From: an uncultured Candidatus Saccharibacteria bacterium | GTDB lineage: Bacteria; Patescibacteriota; Minisyncoccia; Minisyncoccales; UBA10102 | Reading direction: 5' to 3' | DNA: 24,914 nt | Assembly (NCBI GenBank): GCA_964372895.1 | Contig: CAYJRT010000001.1 | Location: 1 to 24,914, forward strand | Shown: positions 3,743-19,385 of the stretch, in pieces | How the letters are laid out: the number at the start of each line of letters is the position of its first letter | Numbering within the stretch: position 1 is the stretch's first letter | Made by a program: the position numbers and the translations under genes | Notes under the pieces: model-generated | Seen by the model: only the letters and a program-made list of their open reading frames with translations | Told to the model about the DNA's origin: nothing | The model's database searches: none

Positions 3743-5176
3743 ATGGTTAGCATATACAGCACGCTTTCTAGGAAAAAAGAAGTTTTCAAGCCCAGAAAGA
3801 GTAAAAAAGTAAACTTTTTTGTGTGCGGGGTGACTACCTACGATTTTTCGCATGTAGGCCACGCGAGAACCTATATTGCCTTTGATATGATCGCAAAGTA
3901 TCTGCGCCAAAGAGGATACGATGTATGCTATTTGCAAAATGTAACTGACGTGGATGACAAAATTATCAAGCGCGCGCAAGAAGTCGGGGAAAGCTCAAAG
4001 AAGCTCGCGCGAAGATTTGAGAAAGAGTATTTGGCAGATATGAGGGCTTTGGGCGTGAATGCGCCGAATGCATACGCAAGAGCTACTGACTACATCCCAG
4101 AAATTATCAGCCAAGCGCAGCGCTTGCTTAAAAAAGGATATGCCTATGAAATTGAAGGCGACGGAATTTATTTCGATATTTCCAAATTCAAAGAATACGG
4201 CAAACTCTCCGGCCGCACTTCAGAGCAGGCACAAGATGCGGTATCGCGAATTGATGAATCGGTGAATAAACACAACAGAGGAGATTTTGCGTTGTGGAGA
4301 TATTCGAAAAAAGGAGAGCCCACATGGCGGCCCGCCCCGCAGGGGCGGGGGCCGTCCCGCCTGCAGGCGGGACGGCCTGGCTGGCATATTGAAGATACTG
4401 CTATCACCGAGAAATTTTTTGGGCCGCAATACGACATACACGGAGGCGCGCAGGATTTGATATTCCCCCATCACGAGGCAGAGGTCACGCAGATGGAATC
4501 GGTTTCTGGAAAGAAGCCTTTTGTAAAGTATTGGCTGCACACCGGATTTTTGACAGTGAAAGGGGAGAAAATGTCGAAGTCTTTGGGAAATTTTGTGACC
4601 ATCCGGGATTTTCTCAAAGTCCAATCCCCTCGTCTGTTGCGATACTTTATTTTGAAGACACATTATCGATCCCCCATCGATTACAGTGAGGAGCTGCTGA
4701 AACAAGCAGAGAGTGAATTAGGAAGGGTTGATGAATTTGTCGACCGCATAAAATCCGAAATTCGAAGCACGAAATCCCAAACAAATTCCAAATTCCAATT
4801 TCAAAAATTCCAAACTGCTTTTGCAAAAGCAATGGACGATGACTTCAACACTCCTTTGGCGATTTCTGTGTTGTTCGACTTGATTCGGGAGGGAAACGCA
4901 ATGCTGCATGAGCAAAGAATGACAAAAGCGAGCGCGAAAGAAATTCTCGATTTTCTCAAGCGAATAGACGAATTTTTTGGATTTATCTTTTGGGGTCGCA
5001 AAGAGCAACACATTCCAGCAGAGGTAAGGAGATTGGCAGAACAACGTAAGCAGTTGAGAGAGAGTCAAAACTGGCAAAAAGCAGATGAGCTGCGCAAAGA
5101 GATAGAAAAAAGAGGTTGGACTGTTGATGATACTCCCTCTGGCTGGAAACTAAAAAAGCTGGTATACCAAAAGTAA
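3743..5176 (+). CDS. cysS: Cysteine--tRNA ligase
   Basis: VCG.T.YD..HVGH (HIGH motif), QNVTDVDDKII, DFALW, GRPGWHIE, DIHGGAQDLIFPHHEAE, KMSKSLGN and a C-terminal anticodon domain (ADELR). Confidence 0.97.
   Translation: MVSIYSTLSRKKEVFKPRKSKKVNFFVCGVTTYDFSHVGHARTYIAFDMIAKYLRQRGYDVCYLQNVTDVDDKIIKRAQEVGESSKKLARRFEKEYLADMRALGVNAPNAYARATDYIPEIISQAQRLLKKGYAYEIEGDGIYFDISKFKEYGKLSGRTSEQAQDAVSRIDESVNKHNRGDFALWRYSKKGEPTWRPAPQGRGPSRLQAGRPGWHIEDTAITEKFFGPQYDIHGGAQDLIFPHHEAEVTQMESVSGKKPFVKYWLHTGFLTVKGEKMSKSLGNFVTIRDFLKVQSPRLLRYFILKTHYRSPIDYSEELLKQAESELGRVDEFVDRIKSEIRSTKSQTNSKFQFQKFQTAFAKAMDDDFNTPLAISVLFDLIREGNAMLHEQRMTKASAKEILDFLKRIDEFFGFIFWGRKEQHIPAEVRRLAEQRKQLRESQNWQKADELRKEIEKRGWTVDDTPSGWKLKKLVYQK
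4331..4377 (+). repeat. Two abutting GC-rich palindromes in frame in cysS
   Basis: CCCGCCCC-GCA-GGGGCGGG (4331-4349) followed by a perfect 28-bp palindrome GGCCGTCCCGCCTGCAGGCGGGACGGCC (4350-4377). Confidence 0.9.
4751..4815 (+). repeat. Degenerate heptamer tract (AAATYCS-like) in frame in cysS
   Basis: AAATCCG AAATTCG AAGCACG AAATCCC AAAC AAATTCC AAATTCC AATTTC AAAAATTCC AAAC, encoding KSEIRSTKSQTNSKFQFQKFQ. Confidence 0.75.
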
Positions 5177-7236: not shown

Positions 7237-7872
7237 ATGCAGATATTCTTTACTTCTCTATTCTGGTTTTTGGTGGCAATTATATTTGCCGCTGTGGAAA
7301 TTGAGGTTGAGGGAAAACATGGTTGGGCAGAGAAAACTTCTACTTGGTTTCGCACAAAAGGTTTTGCTGCAAAACTTTATGGGTTTGTAATGGGCGGCAG
7401 ACCGCTTACAGGCTACCACGGCTTTATGTTCTTTTTGCCTTTATTGGTATTTCACTCACATTTTGTAATGGGTGTGCCATGGTCGTTGGTAAAAGAGCTT
7501 TTGGTATTTGCAATATATTCTGCGTGGATGCCCACCTGGGATTTTCTCTGGTTTGTATTAAATCCGTATTATGGCGTGAAGAAATTCAAAAAACAAAACG
7601 TGTGGTGGCACAGACAAAGCCATTGGCTTTTTAATACCACACCGCTTGATTATCTTTTTGGCTGGGGGTTATCGATTGCGCTTGCAGGATTGGCTGCTTG
7701 GTTGGCATCTGATAATGCGTTACTCTTGAGGCACCTGCATTTCCTTGTGTGGTTTTTCTTTTACACGATTGTAACCATTTTCTTCATAGCGCCTCTTTAC
7801 AAGCGTTGGTATATCAATATGCGCCAACGCGACGACCGCCCAACCTCCGGCATCTTCCATAAGGGAGAATAA
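7237..7872 (+). CDS. Uncharacterised polytopic membrane protein (about 5-6 TM, Trp/aromatic-rich)
   Basis: 211-aa ORF following recR. Hydrophobic segments separated by polar motifs EIEVEGKHGWAE, LTGYH and DFLWFVLNPYYG. Confidence 0.75.
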   Translation: MQIFFTSLFWFLVAIIFAAVEIEVEGKHGWAEKTSTWFRTKGFAAKLYGFVMGGRPLTGYHGFMFFLPLLVFHSHFVMGVPWSLVKELLVFAIYSAWMPTWDFLWFVLNPYYGVKKFKKQNVWWHRQSHWLFNTTPLDYLFGWGLSIALAGLAAWLASDNALLLRHLHFLVWFFFYTIVTIFFIAPLYKRWYINMRQRDDRPTSGIFHKGE

Positions 7873-7884
7873 GTTATTTCGATC

Positions 7885-7920
7885 TGTCGTTAATAACAGC
7901 GATCGCTTGTATTAACGACA
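7885..7920. repeat. 36-bp palindromic repeat 1U (upstream of PaaX/Cas2-like gene 1)
   Basis: TGTCGTTAATA-AC-AGCGATCGCT-TG-TATTAACGACA. 16 of 18 symmetric positions pair; 29/36 identical to 8515-8550. Confidence 0.92.
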
Positions 7921-7934
7921 TGTAGTTTTATAAT
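7907..7934 (+). promoter_or_regulatory. Sigma70-type promoter with -35 inside repeat 1U, probably giving a leaderless mRNA
   Basis: TTGTAT (7907-7912), 16-nt spacer, TATAAT (7929-7934); the ATG follows 6 nt later. Confidence 0.6.
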
Positions 7935-7940
7935 GGAGAT

Positions 7941-8501
7941 ATGAAGCAGTACGGAGAAATTGCAAAACAAATTCTTCTTGTTGTTGGTATTACGGGTGTA
8001 GTGGTAATTGCTGCTGTAGCACCTGGCGCATTACTGGCCGCAAAACCATTTATGCAAAATCGTCAGCGATTTGCCGAAAGGCGTGAAAAGCAAAAAGCCG
8101 TGCGCGCCGTCCAACGACTCCAGAAAAACCGTCTTATCGCTATAAAAGAAGGGAACGGGAACTTTTCTGTTGAACTTACCAAAGAAGGTAAGCGGAAGTT
8201 CAAGGAAATTCAACTCGAAAAACTCAAAATCACAAAGCCTCCGCACTGGGACAAAAGATGGAGGCTTGTTATTTTCGATATTCCCGATAAATCCTTTAAG
8301 CAGGTCCGAGACGTACTGCGAGCGAAACTTAAACAATGGGAATTTTATCCTCTGCAGAAAAGCGTGTGGGTATGCCCATGGCCTTGCGAGAATGAGATAC
8401 AGTTAGTTGCGGAACTGTATGGGGTTGCGTCCTATGTTAACATCGTAGTGGCAGAAAAAATCATTGGTGATGCTTTGCTCCAAAAACATTTCGGTTTATA
8501 G
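7941..8501 (+). CDS. PaaX-like wHTH plus Cas2-like domain protein, copy 1
   Basis: Hydrophobic N-terminal segment, wHTH-like region (AVQRLQKNRLI...ELTKEG), then WDKRWRLVIFDIP..R..LR..L....F..LQKSVWVCP, typical of the PaaX central/Cas2-like fold. Ends HFGL. Confidence 0.8.
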   Translation: MKQYGEIAKQILLVVGITGVVVIAAVAPGALLAAKPFMQNRQRFAERREKQKAVRAVQRLQKNRLIAIKEGNGNFSVELTKEGKRKFKEIQLEKLKITKPPHWDKRWRLVIFDIPDKSFKQVRDVLRAKLKQWEFYPLQKSVWVCPWPCENEIQLVAELYGVASYVNIVVAEKIIGDALLQKHFGL

Positions 8502-8514
8502 CCCGCATTATGTT

Positions 8515-8550
8515 TGTCGTTAGTGACAGCGATCGCTGTTTTAAGCGACA
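8515..8550. repeat. 36-bp palindromic repeat 1D (downstream of PaaX/Cas2-like gene 1)
   Basis: TGTCGTTAGTGACAGCGATCGCTGTTTTAAGCGACA, with a perfect 14-bp core palindrome ACAGCGATCGCTGT and TGTCG/CGACA ends. Direct repeat of 7885-7920. Confidence 0.92.
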
Positions 8551-8583
8551 TAACGATATTTATTCTTCTCTTTTTTGTGCATA

Positions 8584-8647
8584 AGAAAACCGTCCTTTGA
8601 TTACAGTTCACCGCGAGTTCGCTGCAAGCTGCTCGGGACGGTTTTCT
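8584..8647. repeat. 12-bp inverted repeat enclosing 40 nt immediately after the rplU stop (REP-like or possible terminator)
   Basis: AGAAAACCGTCC (8584-8595) and GGACGGTTTTCT (8636-8647). Confidence 0.8.
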
Positions 8648-8968
8648 CTACTTTGTTTCGATAGAGGTGATTTGGATTTCAGAGTAAGGCTGGCGATGGC
8701 CTTTTTTGGTGCGTTCACGTTTTTTAGCTTTAAATTTAAATACTACGACTTTCTTGCCTTTTCCCTGCTCTAAAATTTTGCCTCTTACTTTAACACCTTG
8801 CACAAGCGGCGCACCAACCTCGAGGCCCTTGTCGTTTTGAAGCAATAATACCTCTGAAAATTCAACATCGCTCCCCTCTTCTTGAGCGAGTTTTTCTATT
8901 TTAATTCTTCTGCCAGGAGAAACTATGTATTGTTTTCCTCCTGTTTTTATAACCGCTATTTCTGGCAT
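8648..8968 (-). CDS. rplU: 50S ribosomal protein bL21
   Basis: AVIKTGGKQYIVSPG...GKGKKVVVFKFKAKKR..TKKGHRQPYSEIQITSI. Confidence 0.97.
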   Translation of the reverse strand: MPEIAVIKTGGKQYIVSPGRRIKIEKLAQEEGSDVEFSEVLLLQNDKGLEVGAPLVQGVKVRGKILEQGKGKKVVVFKFKAKKRERTKKGHRQPYSEIQITSIETK

Positions 8969-8977
8969 ACGAAATCT

Positions 8978-9005
8978 AGTATAGCTGAAATGGAGAGAAA
9001 GTCAA
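8978..9005 (-). promoter_or_regulatory. Sigma70-type promoter of rplU
   Basis: TTGACT (9005-9000), 16-nt spacer, TATACT (8983-8978); ATG 9 nt downstream of the -10. Confidence 0.7.
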
Positions 9006-9010
9006 CTGAG

Positions 9011-9084
9011 ATGGGAGCAGCCGGCTGAGCGAAGTTCGGGCTGGCGGTGGGTAGGGCGGACGAAGCGAAGACGGCTGCTCCCAT
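9011..9084. repeat. 13-bp perfect inverted repeat enclosing 48 nt with an internal REP-like hairpin, after the rmuC stop
   Basis: ATGGGAGCAGCCG (9011-9023) and CGGCTGCTCCCAT (9072-9084). The interior contains CTGAGCGAAGTTCGGG and CGAAGCGAAG. Confidence 0.82.
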
Positions 9085-9090
9085 GCTGTA

Positions 9091-10122
9091 TTATTCGTCG
9101 CTTTCTGGTTTTGGGAGTTGGAGAGTTTCTATTTCGCTGGATTGGCCGGTGATTTTAACAATATCTTTATCTACTTTGCCGAGTTCTTTGTAAGCAGTAT
9201 TGTACGTATTTACCGTAGTGCCCAAGTGATTGCCGAGCTTTTTCATGTAGCCCTCGTAAGAAGCTAAATGGCGCTGAAGATCTTCCACGCGCCTGCGAAT
9301 TTCTTTTGCAGATTCTTCAATTTGCAGTGCTTTTAACCCTTGGAGAACGGTTTGCAAGTACGCAAGAAATGAAGTGGGCGAAACAATGATTACCCGATAT
9401 TTGCCCGCCGCTCTTTGTACAAGATTTTCTGTATCGTCTTCAAGCGCGCCTATTTTGTTGATAAGAAGATCGTAATAAATGGCTTCGTGCGGTATGAACA
9501 TAAAGGCAAAATCAGTGGTGCCTTGTTCGGGTTGAATATATTTGGAAGTTTCGAGGATTCGATTTTTCAAATCGTTCACAAAGAGTTTTTCAAGGCGATC
9601 GCGCTCTACTTGTTCGTGTGTCTCGACAATGCGATTGTAATTCTCGAGAGAGAATTTAGAATCAATCGGTATGGTTTTGTCTTTCACAAACACTACTGCG
9701 TCCACAATGGTTCCATTGGGAAATCTATATTGCATTTGGTAAGAGCCCGGCGGCATCACGTTTTTAAGAAGGGTTTCCAAGTAGTATTCTCCCAACACTC
9801 CCCGCTGTTTTGGATTTTTCAAAATATCTTGAAGATTTTTGAGCTGGTCGGTAATGTTCATTACCTGTTTTTGCCCTTCGCTTACGCGCGTGAGCTCTTG
9901 GGTAATGCTCTGAATAAGCTTTGCCGATTCTGAATACTGTTGCTGGAACATTTGCGCAGAAGTGCCAAGTTTTTCGTCGATGGTTTTGCGCAAATCCTGC
10001 AATTGGTTTTGAATAAGCAGCATATCTTGGTCCCCACTCCCCTTTTTTGTGCTTCGCTGCCATATCAAAAACACCACAACTCCTAAAATGGCAATACCCA
10101 TAATGTACAAAATATCTTGCAT
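9091..10122 (-). CDS. rmuC: DNA recombination protein RmuC
   Basis: N-terminal TM helix and coiled coil, NPKQRGVLGEYYLETLL, VDAVV...IPIDSKFSL, DFAFMFIPHEAIY and VIIVSPTSFLAYL. Confidence 0.93.
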   Translation of the reverse strand: MQDILYIMGIAILGVVVFLIWQRSTKKGSGDQDMLLIQNQLQDLRKTIDEKLGTSAQMFQQQYSESAKLIQSITQELTRVSEGQKQVMNITDQLKNLQDILKNPKQRGVLGEYYLETLLKNVMPPGSYQMQYRFPNGTIVDAVVFVKDKTIPIDSKFSLENYNRIVETHEQVERDRLEKLFVNDLKNRILETSKYIQPEQGTTDFAFMFIPHEAIYYDLLINKIGALEDDTENLVQRAAGKYRVIIVSPTSFLAYLQTVLQGLKALQIEESAKEIRRRVEDLQRHLASYEGYMKKLGNHLGTTVNTYNTAYKELGKVDKDIVKITGQSSEIETLQLPKPESDE

Positions 10123-10130
10123 TGTTTTGT

Positions 10131-11117
10131 TTAAGACATAGTTCTTACAATAATTTCCCCAACCATAAATGCAATATACAAGGCTAAAAGAAATACTGCT
10201 TCTTTGCGCGTAATGGTATGTCCGGTGCGCAGAAATACAAGGAAAAAGAGCGCAGACGCGAGCAAGAAAATACGCGCCAAAGCAAAGGGAGAAAAGTTGT
10301 CTATGGAGATCGGGTGAATAAGCGCTACAATTCCTAAGACCAGCGTTGCCATTACAATAATAGACCCCAGTAAATCGCCCAAAATGATTCTACTATTTCC
10401 TCTTTTTGCAGCCACAATGGTAAAGTAAATTTCAGGTAAGGCCGAACCTAGTCCCAATACGAGAATTCCTACAGTTACCATGGGAATGCGGAATTCTGCG
10501 ACAAAAAACTGTATCGTGTGGACTATTCCTTGCGCAGATCCCACGAGAAGCAGGAGCGCTGCAAATGTTTTGAAAACGCTCTGGATAAATCGGTGAAAGC
10601 GCGCAAACGTTTCAACTTGTTTGTTGGGTGATTCTGTGCGGTTACTGGGGTTAAAGATTTGTGTATATTCCTGGCGATTGGAAAAAAGCCAGATGCTGTA
10701 GAGTATAAATATGAGCAAGAGCGCAAGAGCATCTCCTCTCCCCAATTCTTTATCTAAGATAAGCAAAAGCGGCAAGATCGCAATAAAAATAGTAAAGAGA
10801 AGAGATTTTTGAATAAGCGGACCGTCTGCTTTTAATTCTTTGCCTACGAATACGGCAATTGCCGCAACGAGCGTAAAGTCTACCACGCTATTGCCCACGA
10901 TATCGCCAAAAGAAAGCTCGGGAATGCCGTCGAACGCGGCAATAATGCCCACGAAAAGATTGGGAAATGAAGCCACAATTGCCATTACGAAAAACGTAAC
11001 AACAAATTCCTTCCATTGAAGGTATCGCGCAATTTGCGTAATACTCCCCACGAGCCAGCTTACGGCCCAAAGCAAAAGAAAGCCTGAAAAAAGAAAAAGC
11101 AGCGAATAAAACAACAT
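10131..11117 (-). CDS. Sodium:calcium (CaCA, YrbG-like) antiporter
   Basis: Two alpha-repeats (ASFPNLFVGI..GDIVGNS and GSALPEIYFTI..GDLLGS) and about 10 TM helices. Start moved to ATG 11117 because the track's TTG start overlaps a TATAAT. Confidence 0.9.
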   Translation of the reverse strand: MLFYSLLFLFSGFLLLWAVSWLVGSITQIARYLQWKEFVVTFFVMAIVASFPNLFVGIIAAFDGIPELSFGDIVGNSVVDFTLVAAIAVFVGKELKADGPLIQKSLLFTIFIAILPLLLILDKELGRGDALALLLIFILYSIWLFSNRQEYTQIFNPSNRTESPNKQVETFARFHRFIQSVFKTFAALLLLVGSAQGIVHTIQFFVAEFRIPMVTVGILVLGLGSALPEIYFTIVAAKRGNSRIILGDLLGSIIVMATLVLGIVALIHPISIDNFSPFALARIFLLASALFFLVFLRTGHTITRKEAVFLLALYIAFMVGEIIVRTMS

Positions 11118-11123
11118 AGTTCT

Positions 11124-11129
11124 ATTATA
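11124..11129 (-). promoter_or_regulatory. -10 hexamer TATAAT, 6 nt upstream of the antiporter ATG (leaderless-type)
   Basis: Perfect TATAAT on the minus strand. No convincing -35. Confidence 0.5.
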
Positions 11130-11168
11130 CAAAAGAAAGTTCCATTAGAAAACTTCGAGATTTTACGG

Positions 11169-11243
11169 CGCCCTTATGGGGATTCGAACCCCAGTTACCA
11201 GGTTGAGAACCTGGCGTCCTGGACCAGGCTAGACGATAAGGGC
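11169..11243 (-). tRNA. tRNA-Glu(CTC)
   Basis: GCCCTTA/TAAGGGC acceptor, CCAGG-TTCTCAA-CCTGG anticodon arm, TGGGG-TTCGAAT-CCCCA T-arm. Confidence 0.95.
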
Positions 11244-11295
11244 TTAAAGCAAACTGCTAAAATCGCCCAGGGTCAAGATATCACACTCCCCCGCT

Positions 11296-12966
11296 TTATT
11301 CAACCTGATAATCCGGCGGAATCTGATAGTAATCAATAATATATTTGGCGAGCTCGCGAAACAGAGGAACCGCAGAATATTCGGCAGTTTTTGTGGCAGG
11401 GTTGTCGAGTTTTACTACAATAAGAAATTTTGGGTCAAAGGCAGGCGTGTATCCCACAAACGATTGAATGGTTTTGTCTGAATAACCTGATTTTGCTACA
11501 CCCAAAGCAGACCAAGAAATTTGAGCAGTGCCAGTTTTCCCTGCGACATAATACCCGGGAATTTGGGCGGCTTTTCCAAACCCGTTTTGAACAACGTTGA
11601 CAAGCATAGAAGTAACTTGGGAGGCGGTTTTCGATTGTATAACTTGCTCTTGGCTTTTCTCATTTTGATGGCCTTTAACCACAAAAGGGGAGACAAGCAC
11701 TCCATCGTTTGCAATTGCAGAAAAAGCTTTTGCAAGTTGGAGAGGCGTCATTTCAATGCCCTGACCAAAAGAGGCAGTGGCAAAGTTAATTTCATATCCT
11801 TTCTTAAATTCTGCATTTCTTGAAAATACTTCTCCCGCAAGATCAACATTAACTGGCTCAAAAATGCCGAATTTTTCTATATATTCAAGAAAGTTTTCAT
11901 GCCCAAGTTTTCGTTCTGCAAACACTGCTCCTGTGTTAATGGAATATTCCAATACTTCGATCATAGTGCGTTCTCCCCATGTGCGCTGGTCGTAATTATA
12001 GATTGTTCTGCCGCCAATTTTCACCATACCTTTGTCTTGATACACTGTTTCGGGAGTTATTGCTCCTGCGTCGATAGCTGCTGCCATGGTAATTGGTTTG
12101 AACACAGATCCAGGTTCATGTATTTTTTGGATTGCGGGGTTTTGGAATATTTCAATGTTTGTTACCTTTGCATAAGAGTTCGGATCAAACGTAGGGGTAT
12201 TGGCGAGAGCAAGAATTTTACCTGTGCGAGGCTCCATAACAATAATTGTTCCTCCTTGAATTCCAAGATTTTCATGCGCTTTTCCCAAGAGCGATTCTGA
12301 TACCGATTGAATATTGTAATCAAGCGTGAGAATAATGTCTTTACCATCTTGGCTTCCATTGGCAAAAGTTGCCAAGAGATAATTTGCGGGGTTCTTTGCT
12401 CCAATTTTTACGCCTTCTTGGCCATCCAGTATGTTGTTATAGTATTCCTCGATGCCGTACTGGCCATTGCCGTCTTGATTGGTAAAACCTGTAACATGAG
12501 CAGCGAGTGCTTCTTGAGGATATGAACGCACTTGCTCTTCTCCTATATAGACACCTGGGAGTTTGAGATTTTGTATGTCTTGAACTTGGGTTTGTGAAAT
12601 GCGTTTTCTTAAAACTTCAAAAAGACTATCCTGGTTTTGAAGCTTGGAAAAAACAAAGTCTTGTTCGAGTTGGAGAATTTCAGCGAGTTTTACCGCAGTT
12701 TCTTGGTGATTTTTTACTTCTGCCGGAGAAACAAAAGCAAAAGGGATTCTCTGGTTGGAAGCCAAAGTATAGAGATTGTTATTTTTATCCTGCACATAGA
12801 GCGTACCTCTTTCGCCTTTCGCAAACAAATGTATGTTTTGTTGGCCTTGGGCAAGCGCTTTATAAAAACCTTCATGCACAATTTGCAAAAAAACAAGGCG
12901 CCCCACCATGAGTGCGCCAAATGCGAAGAGAAGCAATAATACAACATTTGTTCTCCAATACTTCAT
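11296..12966 (-). CDS. ftsI: Class B penicillin-binding protein (FtsI/PBP2-type)
   Basis: TM anchor, RG.(I)Y dimerisation domain, RSYP, GQYGIEEYYN, EPGSVFK (SxxK), SINTG (SxN) and KTGTAQ. Follows mraZ-rsmH-ftsL. Confidence 0.88.
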   Translation of the reverse strand: MKYWRTNVVLLLLFAFGALMVGRLVFLQIVHEGFYKALAQGQQNIHLFAKGERGTLYVQDKNNNLYTLASNQRIPFAFVSPAEVKNHQETAVKLAEILQLEQDFVFSKLQNQDSLFEVLRKRISQTQVQDIQNLKLPGVYIGEEQVRSYPQEALAAHVTGFTNQDGNGQYGIEEYYNNILDGQEGVKIGAKNPANYLLATFANGSQDGKDIILTLDYNIQSVSESLLGKAHENLGIQGGTIIVMEPRTGKILALANTPTFDPNSYAKVTNIEIFQNPAIQKIHEPGSVFKPITMAAAIDAGAITPETVYQDKGMVKIGGRTIYNYDQRTWGERTMIEVLEYSINTGAVFAERKLGHENFLEYIEKFGIFEPVNVDLAGEVFSRNAEFKKGYEINFATASFGQGIEMTPLQLAKAFSAIANDGVLVSPFVVKGHQNEKSQEQVIQSKTASQVTSMLVNVVQNGFGKAAQIPGYYVAGKTGTAQISWSALGVAKSGYSDKTIQSFVGYTPAFDPKFLIVVKLDNPATKTAEYSAVPLFRELAKYIIDYYQIPPDYQVE

Positions 12967-13247
12967 TGACTTTGAGCTACGAGTCCATTTGGCAATCTGA
13001 TGTACGTAATAGAGGTTACTTTTTCAAAGTTGCGAAACGAGGCTAACTCTTGGAGTTTTAAGAGCGGTACTGCCCGATACGCTTGGGTTTGAAGTGCCGT
13101 ATTTTGGTGTTTGAGTTGAACAACCTGTTGCTCTGTTTCTGCTATGCGCCATGCCAACGCAGTAGTTGAATTGAGTTGCACGACATAGAGAACGATTACC
13201 AGTACTCCGAACATCATTCCGCATGACAATACTATTTTCTTTTTCAT
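12963..13247 (-). CDS. FtsL-like bitopic coiled-coil protein
   Basis: 94 aa: basic N-terminus, one TM helix and a short coiled coil. ATGA overlaps with both rsmH and ftsI, in the canonical ftsL position. Confidence 0.7.
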   Translation of the reverse strand: MKKKIVLSCGMMFGVLVIVLYVVQLNSTTALAWRIAETEQQVVQLKHQNTALQTQAYRAVPLLKLQELASFRNFEKVTSITYIRLPNGLVAQSQ

Positions 13248-14122
13248 ATCTTTATAGCTGCGCGCAGCTTTGCAGATCGCGCTCTACGGTTTTTCTTTAT
13301 TTCGTCTTGCGACGGTGTAATCGGCTTTTTGGTCATTTGAGTGAGTTCCGGTGTTGATTTGAAGAATTCTTTTACGATTCGATCTTCTAACGAGTGAAAC
13401 GAAATAATCCCGAGCCTTCCTTGAGACGCAAGAATATCGGTTGCGCCTCGGAGTCCCTGTTTGAGATTTTCAATTTCGTTGTTTACTGCTACGCGAAGCG
13501 CTTGAAATGTTTTCGTTGCAGGGTGAATTTTCTTTCGGTGATACCACTTGGGCGTGGCTTCCTCTACGACGATCACTAATTGGGAAGTTTTTTGCAAATG
13601 CTCTTGCGCTCTGCTTTGCACAATGGCTTGCGCTATTTCTTTGGCAAATTGTTCTTCGCCGTATGTTTCTAAAATCTCCTCTAGTTGCGCTTTGCTGCTC
13701 CAGTTAAGAATTTTTTCTGCAGTAACAGGATTTGTTGGGTTATAACGCATATCGAGCGGTCCTTCTTTGCGAAAAGAAAATCCTCTTTGCCGGTTTTCCA
13801 ACTGATCAGAAGAGAGTCCTAAGTCGAACAAAATTCCGTGTACTGGAGAGAACTTTTCTTGGCGTGCAATTTCTCTAATGTCGGCGAAATTCCCTTCTCT
13901 TAATACGAGCCTGTTTTGGGATTTGGATTTTGGGATTTGGGTTTTGAGAAGCTGGATTGTACCGGGATCCCAGTCAATCGCCAAAACTTTCCCTTTTGGT
14001 GCCGTGCGTTCGAGTATCGCTAAGGTGTGTCCGCCACTTCCTGCTGTGCAATCAATAAAATTCTCATTGGGCTGGGGATCCAGATACTCCAGAACTTTTC
14101 CTTGTAATACCGGAATGTGCAT
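13244..14122 (-). CDS. rsmH: 16S rRNA C1402 N4-methyltransferase
   Basis: HIPVL, DCTAGSGGH, FDLGLSSDQL..RGFSF..GPLDMR, HPATKTFQALRVAVNNE, ISFHSLEDRIVK and RARSAKLR. Confidence 0.97.
   Translation of the reverse strand: MHIPVLQGKVLEYLDPQPNENFIDCTAGSGGHTLAILERTAPKGKVLAIDWDPGTIQLLKTQIPKSKSQNRLVLREGNFADIREIARQEKFSPVHGILFDLGLSSDQLENRQRGFSFRKEGPLDMRYNPTNPVTAEKILNWSSKAQLEEILETYGEEQFAKEIAQAIVQSRAQEHLQKTSQLVIVVEEATPKWYHRKKIHPATKTFQALRVAVNNEIENLKQGLRGATDILASQGRLGIISFHSLEDRIVKEFFKSTPELTQMTKKPITPSQDEIKKNRRARSAKLRAAIKI
13911..13945 (-). repeat. Five tandem degenerate heptamers in frame in rsmH
   Basis: Coding strand AAAACCC AAATCCC AAAATCC AAATCCC AAAACAG, encoding KTQIPKSKSQNR. Confidence 0.75.
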
Positions 14123-14142
14123 GGTGCAACCCTTCCAGACAT

Positions 14143-14574
14143 TTATATCCCTAGTTCTTTTAACCGTTCTGCCATATCCCCTATTTCTCTTTCAATTCGG
14201 TTTTTATACACCTCCCATTTTTGTTCGTCCCAGATTTCAATTCGATTGTACACGCCAGCGACAACAATTTTTTTCTGGAGCGACGCATATTCTTTTAAGT
14301 AATCAGGAACCAGAATTCTTCCGAGTTTATCCAGGTCTGCTTCCATTGCGCCAGCCAGCATTAATCGCGCAAATCCTCGAGCGTCTGCCTGCGCCAAGGG
14401 CAAGTTGCTTAACTTATTTGCCAGTATTTTCCACTCCCCAAATGAGTATACAAAAAGACATTGATCTAATCCGCGCGTCACTACTGCCCTTGCTCCAAGA
14501 GTTTTTCGAAATTTGGCGGGGATTGCAAATCGATTCTTTTCGTCTATGGAATATGTATATTCACCTAAAAACAT
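14143..14574 (-). CDS. mraZ: Division/cell-wall cluster transcriptional repressor MraZ
   Basis: MFLGEYTYSIDEKNRFAIPAKFR, RGLDQCLFVY, DKLGRILVP and GVYNRIEIW. Confidence 0.96.
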   Translation of the reverse strand: MFLGEYTYSIDEKNRFAIPAKFRKTLGARAVVTRGLDQCLFVYSFGEWKILANKLSNLPLAQADARGFARLMLAGAMEADLDKLGRILVPDYLKEYASLQKKIVVAGVYNRIEIWDEQKWEVYKNRIEREIGDMAERLKELGI

Positions 14575-14604
14575 GAGACTTTTCCACAGTTTAGCTTACT
14601 TTTC

Positions 14605-14629
14605 CCCACTTTTATCCACAATCATCCAC
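14605..14629 (-). promoter_or_regulatory. MraZ operator (three GTGG[A/G] boxes at 10-bp period)
   Basis: The minus strand reads GTGGA-TGATT-GTGGA-TAAAA-GTGGG, matching the known GTGGG-N5 repeat operator, just downstream of the predicted promoter. Confidence 0.8.
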
Positions 14630-14638
14630 CAATGCTTC

Positions 14639-14668
14639 AATATATCCCACCAATGACCCCCTCGTCAA
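14639..14668 (-). promoter_or_regulatory. Candidate promoter of the mraZ operon
   Basis: TTGACG (14668-14663), 18-nt spacer, TATATT (14644-14639). Confidence 0.55.
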
Positions 14669-14697
14669 CCACTTACTTTTCCACAGCGATTAAGATT

Positions 14698-14721
14698 AAA
14701 AGACCCGCTTTTTACGCGGGC
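14698..14721 (-). terminator. Candidate intrinsic terminator downstream of the Clp-like gene
   Basis: Minus strand GCCCGC-GTAAAAA-GCGGGT followed by CTTTT. Confidence 0.55.
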
Positions 14722-14771
14722 AAAATTGCGAGTGTATGTTTAATATGTTTAACGCCGGGCTTTAAACATTT

Positions 14772-17333
14772 TTAGAGTTTTATGACGCTGAATGTTGCAG
14801 GGTCAACCGCAATCCGATCCCCTCTTTTTATTGTATTGGAGAGAAGCGCGACGGCAAGCGAGTTTTCCACTTTGTCCTGCAGCACGCGACGCATATTGCG
14901 CGCGCCAAAAGTGGGATTATATCCGAGTTCTGCAATCTTTGCCTTGAGTTCTTCGGTAATTTTCAATTCAATTCCTTTTTCTGTCATCATGGTACTTTGC
15001 AGTTTTTTGAGCATGAGTCCTGCGATTTGAAGCAGATGCTCTTTGGTGAGCGGAGTGAACAAAATGACTCCGTCGAATCGATTGAGAAATTCTGGCCGAT
15101 AAATTCCTTCTTGGAACAAAAAGTCGAGCATTTGTTCTTTGAGATGTGCAAAATCTTGTTGTTGCTTGATTGCCTGCAGAATAAGCTGATAGCCCGCGTT
15201 GCTCGTTGCAATAATAATGGTATGGCGAAAATCAGTTTTGCGACCGAGACCGTCGGTAACATGGCCTTCATCCAACACCTGCAGGAAAAGGTTTAAAATA
15301 TTAGAATGAGCTTTTTCCAGTTCGTCGAGTAAAAGAAGCGAGAAGGGAGCTTCTCTTACACTGGTGGTCAACAACCCTTCTTGGGTTGGGGTTCCGAGAA
15401 GCCGGTCAATGTCTCTCACGTTTTGGAATTCCGACATGTCCAAACGTATCATGCGGGATTCAGATCCAAAATAAATTGCAGCCAACGCTTTGGCGGTTTC
15501 GGTTTTGCCTACTCCCGTGGGTCCCAAGAAAAGAAAGCTTCCCATAGGGCCGGATCGCGTTGCCACTTGCGCTCTGGCGCGCCGCAGAGCCGAAGCTACC
15601 TCCTTTACCGCTTCTTCTTGATTGACAATGCGCGTGTGAATGAGCTTTTCAAGGTCAAGCAGAGTTTGCCGTTCTTCAGTTTCAATATCACCTACGGGGA
15701 TTTGAGTGCGTTCCGTAACTACCGCAGCCACATGCTTTGGCAAAAGCACTTCGTCTGGAGTTTGCGCTAACCAACTCATTGTTTCATCGAGTAAGTCAGC
15801 CGCCTTTTTTGGAAAAGGCACTGCCTGAATATATTTGTCAGCATACGCCACGATTGTTTGCAACGCAGGATACGAAATGAATTTTTTATACGTTTTTTCA
15901 AACATGGGCACGGTTTCTTGCAAGACCTCGAGCGTTTCTGCTTGGGAAAGTTCCGCAACTTCTACCTGATCAAAGAAAGAAAGAAACGAAGGGTTTTGCT
16001 CCAAGTATCGGTGAAGTCCTGCGAATGTCGTAATGGCAATAAACGGAAATTGCGGGAGTTTTATATACGAAGAAAGAATACCTGTGATATTCATTCTTCC
16101 AGCTGCCTGCCCAAGCTCTTCTCCCACGAAATTGTGAAGGTCGTCGATTACTAAAATAATATTGCCTGCTGCAACAACTTCTCGAAAAATCTCGCTTAAA
16201 ACCGCCTCTGCTTCTTCCAAAGTCTGAATAGATGCAACGAGACTGGCGAGGTCAAGCTCCATAACGCGTTTGTAATTCAAATTTGGGTTGTGGCTCTCGC
16301 CCAGCATGCTTTGAGATGCCAAATTTTGAATTAAGCGCCGTCTTCCAGAGCCCGGGTTTCCAATGAGTAGCACATTGTTTGCTTGCTGGCGAGAGAGGAT
16401 GCGTTCTATGGCTTCTTTTTCTCTTTCGTGGCCTATCGCGCGAGGAAATCGTGCAGCCATGACTTCTTTCGAGATATCGTAACTAAACTGGTCGAGCATA
16501 AGAGCGTAACCCGCAGCCCAATCTTTTCCGAGTGTGCCGCGTCGCCTTAAATTTTTTTTGAGCCAAAACTTTTTTTGCTCCTCAACTTGGGTGCGAATTT
16601 TATAATGCCATTTGACAATATTGGGGATATCACGCTCTGGCAAAAAATTTTGCTCGATAAGATATTGCTTGAAAAAGGCGTCAGAATAAGCCAAAGCGCT
16701 TAGCAAATCTTCAACCTCTACTTTGGGGTGTTCCTGTTGTTTTGCGAGATCAATCGCTTTCGTAATGGTTGCTTGGAAATCTGGCGCAAAAGAGAGTTGA
16801 GTTGTCTTTCTTAAGCGAAGCACTTGAGATTTAAACTGTTTTTCAATGTTCTGTTTGAGCTCTTTGGGGGAAAGCAGCATGCGAGAGAGCATGAGTCCTA
16901 ACGAGGGGTTTTCTTGGAGAAGAACATAGAGAAGAGTTTGTGAATTCAAAGCGAGAAATTGCTGTTGTTGCGCGTATTTGGTTGCCTTTTGTGCGACATG
17001 CAGCGCCTGGAAAGAAAGAAATTCTGCAAAATTTCCTTTTGCAACTAAAGGCAGCGTGTTCTTTAAACTTTCACCGAAGCGTTCAAGCAAAAATATGGAT
17101 GCTCCATACGCAAACATAAGAAACGTAAGCCCAAGCAAGGTTCTACTTATTTGCTGTGAAACCACTCCTTCTGCTGGAATAAAAGTAAGAAGAAAAAGCA
17201 AGAACAGGAGCAAAAAAATCCACTGGGTTGCTCTTCGAATTTTTGAGAGAAAAGCAATATGAAAATGATTGTGAAACCACAATGCGCGCGCGAGAGAGGA
17301 ATCCTCAATATTAAAAGAGAAGGAAGATGCCAT
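14772..17333 (-). CDS. Membrane-anchored ClpA/B-like AAA+ protein with degenerate D1
   Basis: Two N-terminal TM helices, Clp-N-like repeats, D1 with GNPGSGRR and IDDLH, D2 with GPTGVGKTET, RLDMSEF, LLDELEKAH, RPEFLNRFD and GARNMRR. Confidence 0.88.
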   Translation of the reverse strand: MASSFSFNIEDSSLARALWFHNHFHIAFLSKIRRATQWIFLLLFLLFLLTFIPAEGVVSQQISRTLLGLTFLMFAYGASIFLLERFGESLKNTLPLVAKGNFAEFLSFQALHVAQKATKYAQQQQFLALNSQTLLYVLLQENPSLGLMLSRMLLSPKELKQNIEKQFKSQVLRLRKTTQLSFAPDFQATITKAIDLAKQQEHPKVEVEDLLSALAYSDAFFKQYLIEQNFLPERDIPNIVKWHYKIRTQVEEQKKFWLKKNLRRRGTLGKDWAAGYALMLDQFSYDISKEVMAARFPRAIGHEREKEAIERILSRQQANNVLLIGNPGSGRRRLIQNLASQSMLGESHNPNLNYKRVMELDLASLVASIQTLEEAEAVLSEIFREVVAAGNIILVIDDLHNFVGEELGQAAGRMNITGILSSYIKLPQFPFIAITTFAGLHRYLEQNPSFLSFFDQVEVAELSQAETLEVLQETVPMFEKTYKKFISYPALQTIVAYADKYIQAVPFPKKAADLLDETMSWLAQTPDEVLLPKHVAAVVTERTQIPVGDIETEERQTLLDLEKLIHTRIVNQEEAVKEVASALRRARAQVATRSGPMGSFLFLGPTGVGKTETAKALAAIYFGSESRMIRLDMSEFQNVRDIDRLLGTPTQEGLLTTSVREAPFSLLLLDELEKAHSNILNLFLQVLDEGHVTDGLGRKTDFRHTIIIATSNAGYQLILQAIKQQQDFAHLKEQMLDFLFQEGIYRPEFLNRFDGVILFTPLTKEHLLQIAGLMLKKLQSTMMTEKGIELKITEELKAKIAELGYNPTFGARNMRRVLQDKVENSLAVALLSNTIKRGDRIAVDPATFSVIKL

Positions 17334-17694
17334 AAAAGAAACTTACTCCAATGAGCACAGGTAATGCAAGCCAAAACAAAAGAAAAAGACTGCCCAACAC
17401 AAGAAGCACAACTTCTCCTATAAAGCCTACTCCAATAAGAAAACTTCGCATAATAGCTCCCAAAATTCGAGAAATCAAATTAGAGCCAAATATAAAAAGA
17501 TACCTTCCGATATCAAATCCTCTTCCATACTCCCATGTAATTCTTCGCCAAGGAGCAAAAAATGTTTTGAGCAAAAGCAAAACAGAAAAATAGTTGAAAT
17601 TAAACCAGAGGATATTCCCCCATCCTTTCAGAATATCCTGCATTGCTTCGAGATAGTGCCATTTCAGGTAGTGGAGCAGTAAAAGAGATTGCAT
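17311..17694 (-). CDS. Uncharacterised small membrane protein overlapping the Clp-like gene start by 23 bp
   Basis: 127 aa, aromatic-rich (WHY...FNYFS..LLKTFFAPWRR), with a hydrophobic C-terminal hairpin. Confidence 0.75.
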   Translation of the reverse strand: MQSLLLLHYLKWHYLEAMQDILKGWGNILWFNFNYFSVLLLLKTFFAPWRRITWEYGRGFDIGRYLFIFGSNLISRILGAIMRSFLIGVGFIGEVVLLVLGSLFLLFWLALPVLIGVSFFYGIFLLF

Positions 17695-17706
17695 GCACGC
17701 AGTATA

Positions 17707-18546
17707 TCACATTGCGCAATCAGAGCCCAGTTTTTGGAGGAATTGTTCAGAGAGCGTTTTTGCAAAAGCAAACGAAAAACCTGTCCACTGCCAGACGCGC
17801 ACGAGACACCAAGTGTCTCCTTTTTTGGCATAGGGAATTTCTTGTTCAGATTCAGAAGGCTCCCAACTTCGAGTCAACAATTCCACAATTTCTTTGTTGC
17901 CATCTCCACTTACATCGGAGACCTGAATGTCTTCGGTGTGAGTAACGGTGCCGCCCAAAAGAAAAATTGCGTCGCGCGTTTGGCCTTGTTTCTCTTGAAG
18001 CTGAATCCATGTAAGTTTTTTCTCTTGCGTCTCAAAGTTCAAAAACCCGTGGGCAACGTTTGAGGCTCCTCCAAATCCCAAAGAAAAGAAAAGCTCTGGA
18101 ATGCCGTCTGAAGTAATATCTTCAAGTTCTTTCACTGTAGGCACGTCGTGCAAGAGCTCTTGGTACTCAACCCTTCCTCTATTTTCGTATTCCCCTTCTT
18201 GGTTGAGCACAGTGAGCACTTGTATGGTTGCTGCGCGCGGTCTTGCAAAAGGATCTTGAGTTCTTTCCGCAGCGCCAATGAGTAATTCGGGACCACCTTT
18301 TCGATCAAGATTTGTTAACGTATAGGTCGCAGTTTCTGCATCGAATCTCGCTTCAAGAGCGTTTTTGAGTATGTTTTGCGCGAGTTGTTCTGAAATCTCG
18401 AAAGTTTCCTCCTGGTTGGACTTGAGAGTTTGCGTCTGTTTTTCTGGAAGGTTGGACAAAGACAAGGGTTCTTTTTGATCGGACACAACAAAAAGTCCTA
18501 CCCCGATAACCACAATAAGCGCGATAAATAAAAAAAGTAATTTCAT
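17707..18546 (-). CDS. Membrane-anchored extracellular protein with three FG-GAP/VCBS-like Dx(D/S)G..E loops
   Basis: N-terminal signal anchor; motifs NLDRKGGPELLIG, DITSDGIPELFFS and DVSGDGNKEIVE. Confidence 0.65.
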   Translation of the reverse strand: MKLLFLFIALIVVIGVGLFVVSDQKEPLSLSNLPEKQTQTLKSNQEETFEISEQLAQNILKNALEARFDAETATYTLTNLDRKGGPELLIGAAERTQDPFARPRAATIQVLTVLNQEGEYENRGRVEYQELLHDVPTVKELEDITSDGIPELFFSLGFGGASNVAHGFLNFETQEKKLTWIQLQEKQGQTRDAIFLLGGTVTHTEDIQVSDVSGDGNKEIVELLTRSWEPSESEQEIPYAKKGDTWCLVRVWQWTGFSFAFAKTLSEQFLQKLGSDCAM

Positions 18547-18551
18547 GAGTG

Positions 18552-18663
18552 CAGTCCCGCACCTTTTTCTCGGTGGGTGTAGAAGGTTTCGAACCTTCGG
18601 CCTCTTCGATGTGAACGAAGCGCTCTACCACTGAGCTATACACCCATAAAAGGTGCGGGGCTG
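18552..18663. repeat. 16-bp inverted repeat bracketing tRNA-Val
   Basis: CAGTCCCGCACCTTTT (18552-18567) and AAAAGGTGCGGGGCTG (18648-18663); 15/16 complementary. Confidence 0.88.
18574..18645 (-). tRNA. tRNA-Val(CAC)
   Basis: GGGTGTA/TACACCC acceptor, GCTC-AGTGGTA-GAGC D-arm, CTTCG-TTCACAT-CGAAG anticodon arm, GAAGG-TTCGAAA-CCTTC T-arm. Confidence 0.95.
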
Positions 18664-18681
18664 AACCAAATAACTGATACT

Positions 18682-18709
18682 ACTATAGCAGAAGTTGTGG
18701 GATTTTCAA
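18682..18709 (-). promoter_or_regulatory. Promoter for tRNA-Val and downstream genes
   Basis: TTGAAA (18709-18704), 16-nt spacer ending TGC, TATAGT (18687-18682); extended -10. Confidence 0.65.
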
Positions 18710-18741
18710 TGCATTGGCAATGCAGATAAGAGTAAACGATT

Positions 18742-18779
18742 TGTTCCATTTCATTGACGATCGTTAATTTTGTGAAACA
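18742..18779. repeat. 38-bp palindromic repeat 2U (upstream of PaaX/Cas2-like gene 2)
   Basis: TGTTCCATTTCATTGACGATCGTTAATTTTGTGAAACA; the first 27 nt are identical to 19348-19385. Confidence 0.93.
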
Positions 18780-18784
18780 ATAGA

Positions 18785-19342
18785 ATGTGTATGAGGTTTT
18801 TAAAAGAAAATTCTGTCCCCTACGAAATTTTGATGAGCCTTAGGGAACTAGGGAGCGATTATGTGTATTTTACATTTCACCCTCCGCGTTCTGTGCGTGG
18901 TGCCTTATATCAGATGGATCGAAGAATTAATGATCGTACGAGAGCGCAAGCGATAGGAAAACTTAAGAAACAAGGTTTGCTTGCAGAATATAAAAAAGGC
19001 GGTGAGCGGTATTTAAGGATTACTGAAAAGGGAAAGGTAGAAATTATAAGATATAAACTTAAACAAAAGAATGTAGAACAATGGGATAAAAAATGGCGAG
19101 TTATTATTTTCGATATTCCAGAGGTCACACGGAAAGACCGGAATTTTTTAAGGCAACAGTTAAAATGGCTCGGCTTCTTTGAACTCCAGAAGAGCGTATG
19201 GGTGTTCCCCTATGAGGTCAAAAAGGACTTGGAAGCGTTCATAAAGCTCTGCAATATTGAATTAAACGGTGACATTCGATTCTTGATTGTGGAGCAAATG
19301 GAAGATAAAGATCTACGGCGTCATTTTGGCTTGAAATCGTAG
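18785..19342 (+). CDS. PaaX-like wHTH plus Cas2-like domain protein, copy 2
   Basis: wHTH-like region (AIGKLKKQGLL...LRITEKG), then WDKKWRVIIFDIPE..RKDRNFLRQQLKWLGFFELQKSVWVFP, ending HFGLKS. The start may be ATG 18791. Confidence 0.82.
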   Translation: MCMRFLKENSVPYEILMSLRELGSDYVYFTFHPPRSVRGALYQMDRRINDRTRAQAIGKLKKQGLLAEYKKGGERYLRITEKGKVEIIRYKLKQKNVEQWDKKWRVIIFDIPEVTRKDRNFLRQQLKWLGFFELQKSVWVFPYEVKKDLEAFIKLCNIELNGDIRFLIVEQMEDKDLRRHFGLKS

Positions 19343-19347
19343 ATAAC

Positions 19348-19385
19348 TGTTCCATTTCATTGACGATCGTTAATAAAATGGAACA
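19348..19385. repeat. 38-bp palindromic repeat 2D (downstream of PaaX/Cas2-like gene 2)
   Basis: TGTTCCATTT-C-ATT-G-ACGATCGT-T-AAT-A-AAATGGAACA; 17 of 19 symmetric positions are Watson-Crick pairs. Confidence 0.93.

Follow-up and report, generated by a model that had tools for sequence, protein, structure and literature searches.

What is a gene that lies between two copies of its own palindrome, and what would its product do with them? The question arises from a stretch of 24,914 nucleotides (nt), hereafter the window, from an uncultured Candidatus Saccharibacteria bacterium (assembly GCA_964372895.1, contig CAYJRT010000001.1), where this layout occurs twice. Both genes encode a short protein related to the repressor PaaX, with a winged helix-turn-helix (wHTH) domain followed by a Cas2-like domain, and we refer to them as mini-PaaX; such a gene with its upstream (U) and downstream (D) palindromes is called a cassette. 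An original prediction, made from the sequence of the window, had offered four explanations: an excisable mini-cassette, a two-operator autoregulatory unit, RNA hairpins processed by the encoded protein, and a relic of clustered regularly interspaced short palindromic repeats (CRISPR). Here, we propose with moderate confidence that the second is correct and that each unit is a PaaX-type autorepressor acting on duplex DNA and bracketed by two operators.

In the first cassette, a palindrome of 36 base pairs (bp) (U1, 7885..7920; outer boxes TGTCGTT/AACGACA, core GCGATCGC) precedes a gene for 186 amino acids (7941..8501, forward strand), which is followed by a second copy of 36 nt (D1, 8515..8550). 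The second cassette consists of a 38-bp palindrome (U2, 18742..18779; outer box TGTTCCA, core ACGATCGT), a gene for 185 amino acids (18785..19342, forward strand, with an alternative ATG at 18791) and a 38-nt downstream copy (D2, 19348..19385). U1 and D1 are 81% identical, 630 bp apart and separated from the open reading frame (ORF) by 20 and 13 nt; U2 and D2 are 87% identical, in direct orientation, 606 bp apart, with gaps of 5 nt on both sides. The positions and the layout that had been predicted for both cassettes thus all hold on re-measurement. The four palindromes do share a TGT start, an ACA end and a CGATCG centre, but U2 is a poor palindrome, with a degenerate right arm and an RNA fold of only -8.3 kcal/mol (z -0.9). 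At its own locus each repeat type is present just twice, and the pattern TGT-N13-CGATCG-N13-ACA has two matches in the window and none in 100 shuffles.

Both proteins match the PaaX_M profile (PF20803, cut-off 24 bits), protein 1 with 78.4 bits (E 4e-22) and protein 2 with 75.0 bits (E 5e-21), while they are only 35% identical to each other. Weaker matches to Cas2 and to winged-helix profiles were also found. Protein 1 stays below the Cas2 cut-offs (20.0 versus 23.8 bits for PF09827, 18.6 versus 24.5 bits for TIGR01573), and protein 2 lies just above the latter (25.3 bits). No match to the C-terminal PaaX family was found in either protein, both of which end directly after PaaX_M. As they stop after the Cas2-like domain, they lack the effector-binding domain of PaaX (PaaX_C), and they fall far under the cut-off of the PaaX equivalog TIGR02277 (35.1 and 51.1 bits versus 264.55). 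An AlphaFold2 model of mini-PaaX (pLDDT 86.5) predicts a helix (residues 47-62), a two-strand wing (66-79), a linker helix (81-94) and, at 107-171, a ferredoxin-like domain. Its best fold match in the PDB is Escherichia coli PaaX (8a39, E 3e-5), followed by Rv0674 and Cas2 chains, and the wHTH matches the profiles of AspA, TubR, MarR and PaaX; a phmmer search of the PDB with the Cas2-like domain alone returned nothing useful. These matches bear out the originally proposed combination of a wHTH with a Cas2-like domain. The acidic residue of Cas2 type (in FDIP) is likewise present in both proteins, but the shared HFGL terminus that had been described is the actual end of protein 1 only, protein 2 ending in HFGLKS. 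Six residues are invariant in 36 of 36 sequences: G83 in the wing, and D113, R123, R127, Q139 and S141 in the Cas2-like domain. D113, the Asp in the FDIP motif, lies where strand 1 ends, which is the position of the metal-binding catalytic Asp in Cas2.

PaaX of E. coli and Pseudomonas (PDB 8a39 and 3l09; TIGR02277; PF20803) is therefore the closest known relative by both sequence profile and fold, with the same wHTH and Cas2-like middle domain. It differs by its length, 316 amino acids including the C-terminal effector-binding domain versus about 185 for mini-PaaX, and by its link to paa genes. AspA, TubR and MarR give the best profile matches to the recognition helix and wing and also bind palindromic sites, but they are without a Cas2-like domain, dimerise by another architecture and have a much shorter site spacing. 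With Cas2 and VapD-like proteins, mini-PaaX shares the ferredoxin-like fold (strand-helix-strand-strand-helix-strand), the Asp at the end of strand 1 and a presumed dimer; it differs in its fused wHTH, in the lack of Cas1 or an array, and in that protein 1 scores under the Pfam Cas2 cut-off.

Bracketing by palindromes is a rule of this family. The genome of the window (G000; 502 kb, 86 contigs, 78% complete) has 13 PaaX_M paralogues in 0.5 Mb, nearly all with a cognate palindrome on each side, with the core CGATCG, GCGACCGC, GCTATAGC, CGTATATACG or CCATGG. To generalise, we scored any repeat common to the 140 nt on the 5′ side and the 140 nt on the 3′ side of a gene. Among 81 mini-PaaX genes from 13 related genomes, 80 had enough flank for this test, and 73 of these reached a score of at least 12, compared with 14 of 704 other genes from two genomes. 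Further away, in distant families of the phylum (39 loci), a repeat was found for 15 of 21 proteins matching the whole mini-PaaX profile and for 4 of 18 proteins with other architectures, which shows that the rule belongs to this subfamily and not to all PaaX_M proteins. Such bracketing is thus usual for the subfamily in the ultra-small bacteria of the Candidate Phyla Radiation (CPR). A PaaX_M match is present in about one quarter of the 301 genomes sampled from the phylum, usually in one or two copies and in few genomes in at least five; the family of the window is patchy, with up to 13-14 copies per genome and none in 9 of 18 sampled genomes. Among the papers that could be searched, we found none describing such a self-bracketed mini-PaaX arrangement, and within that literature the system can still be called undescribed.

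The anatomy of the palindromes points to a protein bound to duplex DNA. We placed U and D in register in 54 cassettes, on which the following figures rest. All palindromes are centred between two bases, with arms of 12-23 nt, and three zones can be told apart. The core, at positions 1-4 from the dyad, is self-complementary in 94-97% and identical between U and D in 95-99%. Positions 5-13 form a spacer in which these values drop to 54-82% and 55-79%. The outer boxes, at positions 14-19, are again highly symmetric (90-99%), with a U-D identity of 76-97%. Alternative cores are nearly all self-complementary as well (CGATCG, GCTATAGC, GCATATGC, CTGCAG, CCATGG, CGGCCG, CGTACG, AAGCTT), and a few are one position off, such as GCGACCGC and GCTATCGC. 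Since the innermost bases are unable to pair in a hairpin, the symmetry of the core points to a symmetric dimer on the duplex; judged from these sequences, a symmetric core with a loosely symmetric mid-arm is a better fit to a two-fold protein bound to the double strand than to a stem-loop. The E. coli PaaX operator, TGATTC-N27-GAATCA, spans 39 bp with two 6-bp boxes, and PaaX represses its own promoter Px by steric hindrance (PMC9493321). The outer boxes of the cassettes are spaced from the dyad exactly as in this operator (6-N27-6). To the PaaX arrangement, mini-PaaX adds the conserved 8-bp dyad core, a second site 3′ of the gene, and up to 13-14 paralogues with separate sites in one small genome.

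The two copies differ in their relation to the promoter. In the first window cassette, a putative promoter read by eye (7907..7934, forward strand) consists of TTGTAT, lying in the right arm of U1, followed after 16 nt by TATAAT and then by GGAG at 7935-7938; a strict promoter scan did not list it, as its -35 box matches at 3 of 6 positions only. In the second, a promoter-like site (18754..18781, forward strand; TTGACG-16-AACAAT with TG) lies largely within U2. Across the cassettes, 45 of 54 U copies have a -10-like hexamer (at least 5 of 6 matches to TATAAT) in the stretch from the dyad to the ATG, as against 16 of 54 D copies over an equal length. Perfect TATAAT boxes number 19 for U and 3 for D, and within cassettes the better -10 element is on the U side in 37 and on the D side in 5. 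The presence of a promoter element in U accounts for the asymmetry of its spacer and for the spacer difference between U and D.

The downstream copy, in turn, has features of an RNA element. For D, the sense strand gives the more stable RNA fold in 33 cassettes and the antisense strand in 11 (p 4e-4); for U the count is 22 against 22. Mismatches in D are of the G-T type in 48 cases and of the A-C type in 19; the corresponding numbers for U are 44 and 41. A role of D at the RNA level is thus likely, as far as can be read from sequence composition and folding.

Direct and inverted alignments of U and D were scored independently; 32 cassettes have them in direct and 14 in inverted orientation, and 43 are undecidable. 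Such a mixture means that no mechanism always yielding direct copies (duplication upon insertion, integration of a circle at a solo site) can be general, nor one always yielding inverted ends. It fits what would be expected of a symmetric binder indifferent to the orientation of its site.

The history of the first cassette further ties the protein to its palindromes. Its orthologue lies at the same place between RecR and L21-RmuC in two distant organisms (RmuC 65-66% identical), which encode proteins 84% and 77% identical to protein 1 (L171 and L172). These values exceed those of the neighbouring genes at the two loci (RmuC 66% and 65%, L21 72% and 76%). The palindromes are conserved while the surrounding intergenic DNA is not: in one of the two relatives, U is identical at 29 of 29 positions over the part covered by its contig, and the recognition helix is nearly unchanged. 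In the other, the outer box TGTCGTTAA has become TGTCGCCAA (TT to CC), with the mirror change (AA to GG) in the opposite arm, complete in D and partial in U, and the recognition helix has four differences. Paralogues 63-67% identical to protein 1 differ in their recognition helices and outer boxes but retain the GCGATCGC core and a Cas2-like domain that hardly varies. The idea that each protein co-evolves with its own site is thus upheld by the joint change of box and helix in the relatives of cassette 1.

Both window sites are empty in a sister species of the same genus (G001; RmuC 87% identical, genome 98% complete). Window positions 7860-8642 correspond there to about 40 nt containing only a terminator-like hairpin, and the distance from tRNA-Val to the next gene is 807 nt in G000 and 64 nt in G001; no palindrome is present in the G001 intervals matching the two cassettes. 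As cassette 1 is shared by more distant relatives at one site, it must be old there, and G001 most probably lost the whole unit.

Altogether, the anatomy of the sites, the match to the PaaX operator, the overlap with the promoter, the independence of orientation and the joint change of site and helix make the autorepressor the best supported explanation. Mini-PaaX is a shortened PaaX that lacks the ligand-binding C-terminal domain and consists of an N-terminal winged helix, then a linker helix, then a Cas2-like domain for dimerisation; it would sit on duplex DNA as a two-fold symmetric dimer. Each winged helix would recognise one of the 6-bp outer boxes, which lie about 33 bp from each other, with the centre of the dimer positioned over the conserved 8-bp core. 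Since U overlaps the gene's own promoter, binding there should repress transcription, in the manner of PaaX at Px. D repeats this site at the 3′ end; it probably serves also as the 3′ stem-loop of the mRNA, and may close off the unit as a roadblock, a terminator or a second operator. The unit of palindrome, gene and palindrome is passed on vertically over long periods and lost whole. Copies of the sites found alone, around another gene and inside uvrC suggest that sites also spread in the manner of repetitive extragenic palindromic (REP) elements.

Several observations weigh against this explanation. Nothing in the published PaaX operator corresponds to the conserved 8-bp core, and the six invariant residues exceed what dimerisation alone would seem to require, which leaves room for catalysis. 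The U-D distance shows no helical phasing, so that a phased-loop model is without support. As for D, a T-run follows just 9 of 54 copies, and the G+T skew downstream of the genes by itself predicts a 1.65:1 excess of G-T mismatches, which makes the RNA-hairpin signal only partly independent of composition. Among the palindromes found away from mini-PaaX genes in G001, 8 of 19 best match cassette types found only in G000. In addition, five solo sites lie between convergent genes and one copy lies in uvrC; none of these is easily interpreted as the operator of a regulon. Finally, every functional step of the autorepressor model is one that we infer.

These solo palindromes also count in favour of the next explanation. 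Here, the cassette would be a mobile element, transposon-like or excisable, with the palindromes as sites of action and the Cas2-fold protein as the enzyme or an essential cofactor; it would move both cassettes and solo palindromes, as in REP/RAYT systems (RAYT, REP-associated tyrosine transposase) but with a protein unrelated to RAYTs. While we consider this unlikely, it deserves to be set out. Put in its most specific form, also doubtful, the cassettes would be long-lived intragenomic replicators: a Cas2-fold enzyme guided by its wHTH would nick or join DNA at its own palindrome, and palindromes, sometimes with the whole bracketed gene, would be copied to new sites, even in frame into genes. 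D113, invariant at the catalytic position of Cas2, agrees with such an activity, and catalysis by the Cas2-like domain is conceivable but unlikely.

A strict scan for the core and the outer boxes found 25 palindromes in each of G000 and G001, compared with 1-3 in shuffled sequences, and 13 and 19 of these, respectively, lie away from any mini-PaaX gene. Fifteen solo copies are located between tandem genes, five between convergent and one between divergent genes, with 1-5 copies per palindrome type; the orthologous positions of the 32 solo palindromes are mostly unmappable, as G000 is fragmented and the intergenic DNA has diverged. One of them (G001:C5:11594-11629) is identical to U1 at 35 of 36 positions, although in their genes the two species share no more than 70-80% identity at the DNA level. 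Five solo palindromes of G001 have the CGTATATACG core (C3:12544, C3:33016, C6:21592, C13:8707 and C18:7420); G001 has no cassette of this type, and the matching one is in G000 (C71). From a separate, earlier palindrome scan came a perfect 30-nt palindrome centred on CGATCG inside uvrC (G000:C57:338-367; L001:250-279). Compared with uvrC of the sister species, the gene has an in-frame insertion of 42 nt (14 extra residues) that includes this palindrome; a 43-nt near-copy is present elsewhere in the sister genome (G001:C13:5148-5190). Two further solo copies of G001 lie within ORFs, where their status as insertions could not be confirmed. Finally, a 167-amino-acid gene, putatively NYN-like (306-809, minus strand, in G000:C50:136-1039), lies between two identical 40-nt palindromes of the cassette-1 type that resemble D1, with a third palindrome of another type (G000:C50:933-972) stacked beside one of them. 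Such orphan, misplaced and in-frame copies do not fit the expectation for a simple regulon and resemble REP elements.

Comparison of the two species gives a mixed picture of movement. Of the seven cassette sites that could be compared, the two species share two; at four others the cassette is present in G000 alone, and at one in G001 alone. Five of seven sites thus differ within one genus, in keeping with mobility. Yet no palindrome is left behind as a scar at the four sites empty in G001, and the palindrome present at the one site empty in G000 belongs to another type, so that the single-palindrome scars expected from excision were not found. Moreover, cassette 1 is fixed at one site across relatives with 65% RmuC identity, and since distant relatives keep it, its gap in the closer sister (87%) is most simply a loss and not an empty target. 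Target-site duplications are not enriched over the 54 cassettes; two to four candidates were seen, including duplications of 13-16 nt at G000 C10, L018, L113 and a 64-nt solo insertion. The repeat ends with the palindrome, without any extension. No excision or circle joints were found at the palindromes in Logan contigs of four runs spanning both window cassettes, which is weak evidence given that contigs drop rare variants. Together with the inverted orientation of 14 of 46 decidable cassettes, these results speak against the excisable mini-cassette of the original prediction.

Known mobile systems resemble the cassettes in some features and differ in others. REP/REPIN-RAYT systems share with the cassettes a single gene between cognate palindromes, the dispersal of the same palindromes in intergenic regions, and long vertical inheritance with occasional loss; REP sequences reach tens to hundreds of copies, against 1-5 solo copies per type, with many types per genome, here. 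RAYTs are HUH/Y1 transposases, which mini-PaaX is not, and the cassette palindromes are single 36-40-bp dyads with an operator-like anatomy unlike that of REP. Classical units of this kind may stand beside mini-PaaX cassettes in G001, where two putative IS200/RAYT-type genes with an HYH motif (L075:1889-2611 on G001:C7, and L067:9471-10211, that is G001:C4:29471-30211) each lie between their own short palindromes. Insertion sequences and transposons have fixed inverted terminal repeats and target-site duplications; in the cassettes, U and D occur in both orientations, and flanking duplications are in no overall excess, with a few candidates of 13-16 nt. Integron cassettes depend on an integrase and carry a single 3′ attC, whereas mini-PaaX genes have gene-specific sites on both sides. 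The original statement that the window holds no cas1, CRISPR array, integrase or transposase was borne out by profile searches, without any match to Cas1 (PF01867), Y1 transposase (PF01797), tyrosine recombinase (Xer-type) or resolvase in the window or the rest of G000; the same result leaves G000, at 78% completeness, without a matching alternative mover, while G001 and G008 have one tyrosine recombinase match each. If mini-PaaX also moved its sites, it would represent a new kind of mobile DNA and, if true, a functional link of the Cas2 fold to DNA movement outside CRISPR.

A system acting at the RNA level appears improbable. In it, the palindromes would work as hairpins of RNA or single-stranded DNA, and the Cas2-like protein would bind or cleave its own transcript. 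Ribonucleases do occur among the relatives of Cas2, D shows the sense-strand bias and the excess of G-U-compatible mismatches reported above, and folding of the window copies gives -18.1 kcal/mol for D1 and -19.6 kcal/mol for D2, the best hairpin of the four (z -6.3), with U1 at -15.7 kcal/mol. Yet the most symmetric bases are the innermost two to four, which cannot pair in a hairpin loop, and the stem is interrupted at positions 5-13. Where the -10 element falls within or just past the right arm of U, most of U precedes the transcription start, and yet U, devoid of strand bias, is conserved like D. The spacing of the boxes is also that of a PaaX operator on duplex DNA. The hairpins of the original prediction are thus retained in part, for D but not for U.

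Even less probable is an ordinary family of transcription factors with small regulons, in which both flanking copies would serve as operators of the cassette gene and the solo copies as those of target genes, without any mobility. Some solo sites, located between tandem genes, do match a cassette of their own genome, the putative NYN-like gene with its cassette-1-like copies could be such a target, and the family, patchy as it is, is vertically stable at one locus. However, the G001 solos without a cognate protein, the sites between convergent genes and the in-frame copy in uvrC do not suit regulons, nor does a range of 0 to 14 copies among genomes of one family. Hardly credible, lastly, is the CRISPR relic, a repeat-spacer-repeat unit with the cas2-like gene as its "spacer": the repeats are palindromic and 36-38 bp long and protein 2 just exceeds the TIGR01573 cut-off, but there is no Cas1 match in the genome and no array at either window cassette, the PaaX_M and wHTH matches far outscore Cas2, one third of the decidable cassettes have inverted copies, and the upstream copy is a predicted promoter-operator.

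The proposed autorepressors matter for the biology of CPR/Patescibacteria, whose tiny genomes contain few regulators or mobile elements that can be recognised. Here a single small family amounts to about 13 genes per 0.5 Mb, each with a private site of 36-40 bp; these proteins may therefore form a large part of the sequence-specific DNA binders present. The matched pairs of protein and site are a natural series for studying how a wHTH coupled to a Cas2-fold dimer reads DNA, and they could supply orthogonal repressor-operator parts. For annotators, the labels now given to family members in databases, "hypothetical", "PaaX" or "Cas2", all fail to describe them.

The genes around the two cassettes are those for RecR, an unknown ORF, ribosomal protein L21, RmuC, tRNA-Val and further unknown ORFs, and no linkage to phenylacetate catabolic genes was found among these neighbours. 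Longer repeats around the window palindromes were considered and set aside: no extension past the palindrome was detected, as direct or inverted flanks, inverted arms of 63 and 51 nt reach a complementarity of just 73-75%, and the 27 nt beyond the cassette-1 palindrome have 17 matches by hand count, near chance for AT-rich sequence. Elsewhere in the window, a perfect 28-nt GC-rich palindrome with a CTGCAG centre (4350-4377) lies within a 477-amino-acid ORF (3743-5176) and is unrelated in sequence to those of the cassettes. Elsewhere in G000, a gene for 207 amino acids (G000:C35:2808-3431) has an exact 40-nt non-palindromic direct repeat at both flanks; its contig contains a run of N, and the arrangement could reflect either an error of assembly or a further type of bracketed gene. 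Finally, a contig of one sequencing run (X3) has CCTT in place of 80 nt on the 3′ side of D1 (window 8566-8647). The large hairpin that precedes the L21 gene is shortened by this change, and the terminator region may thus vary within the population.

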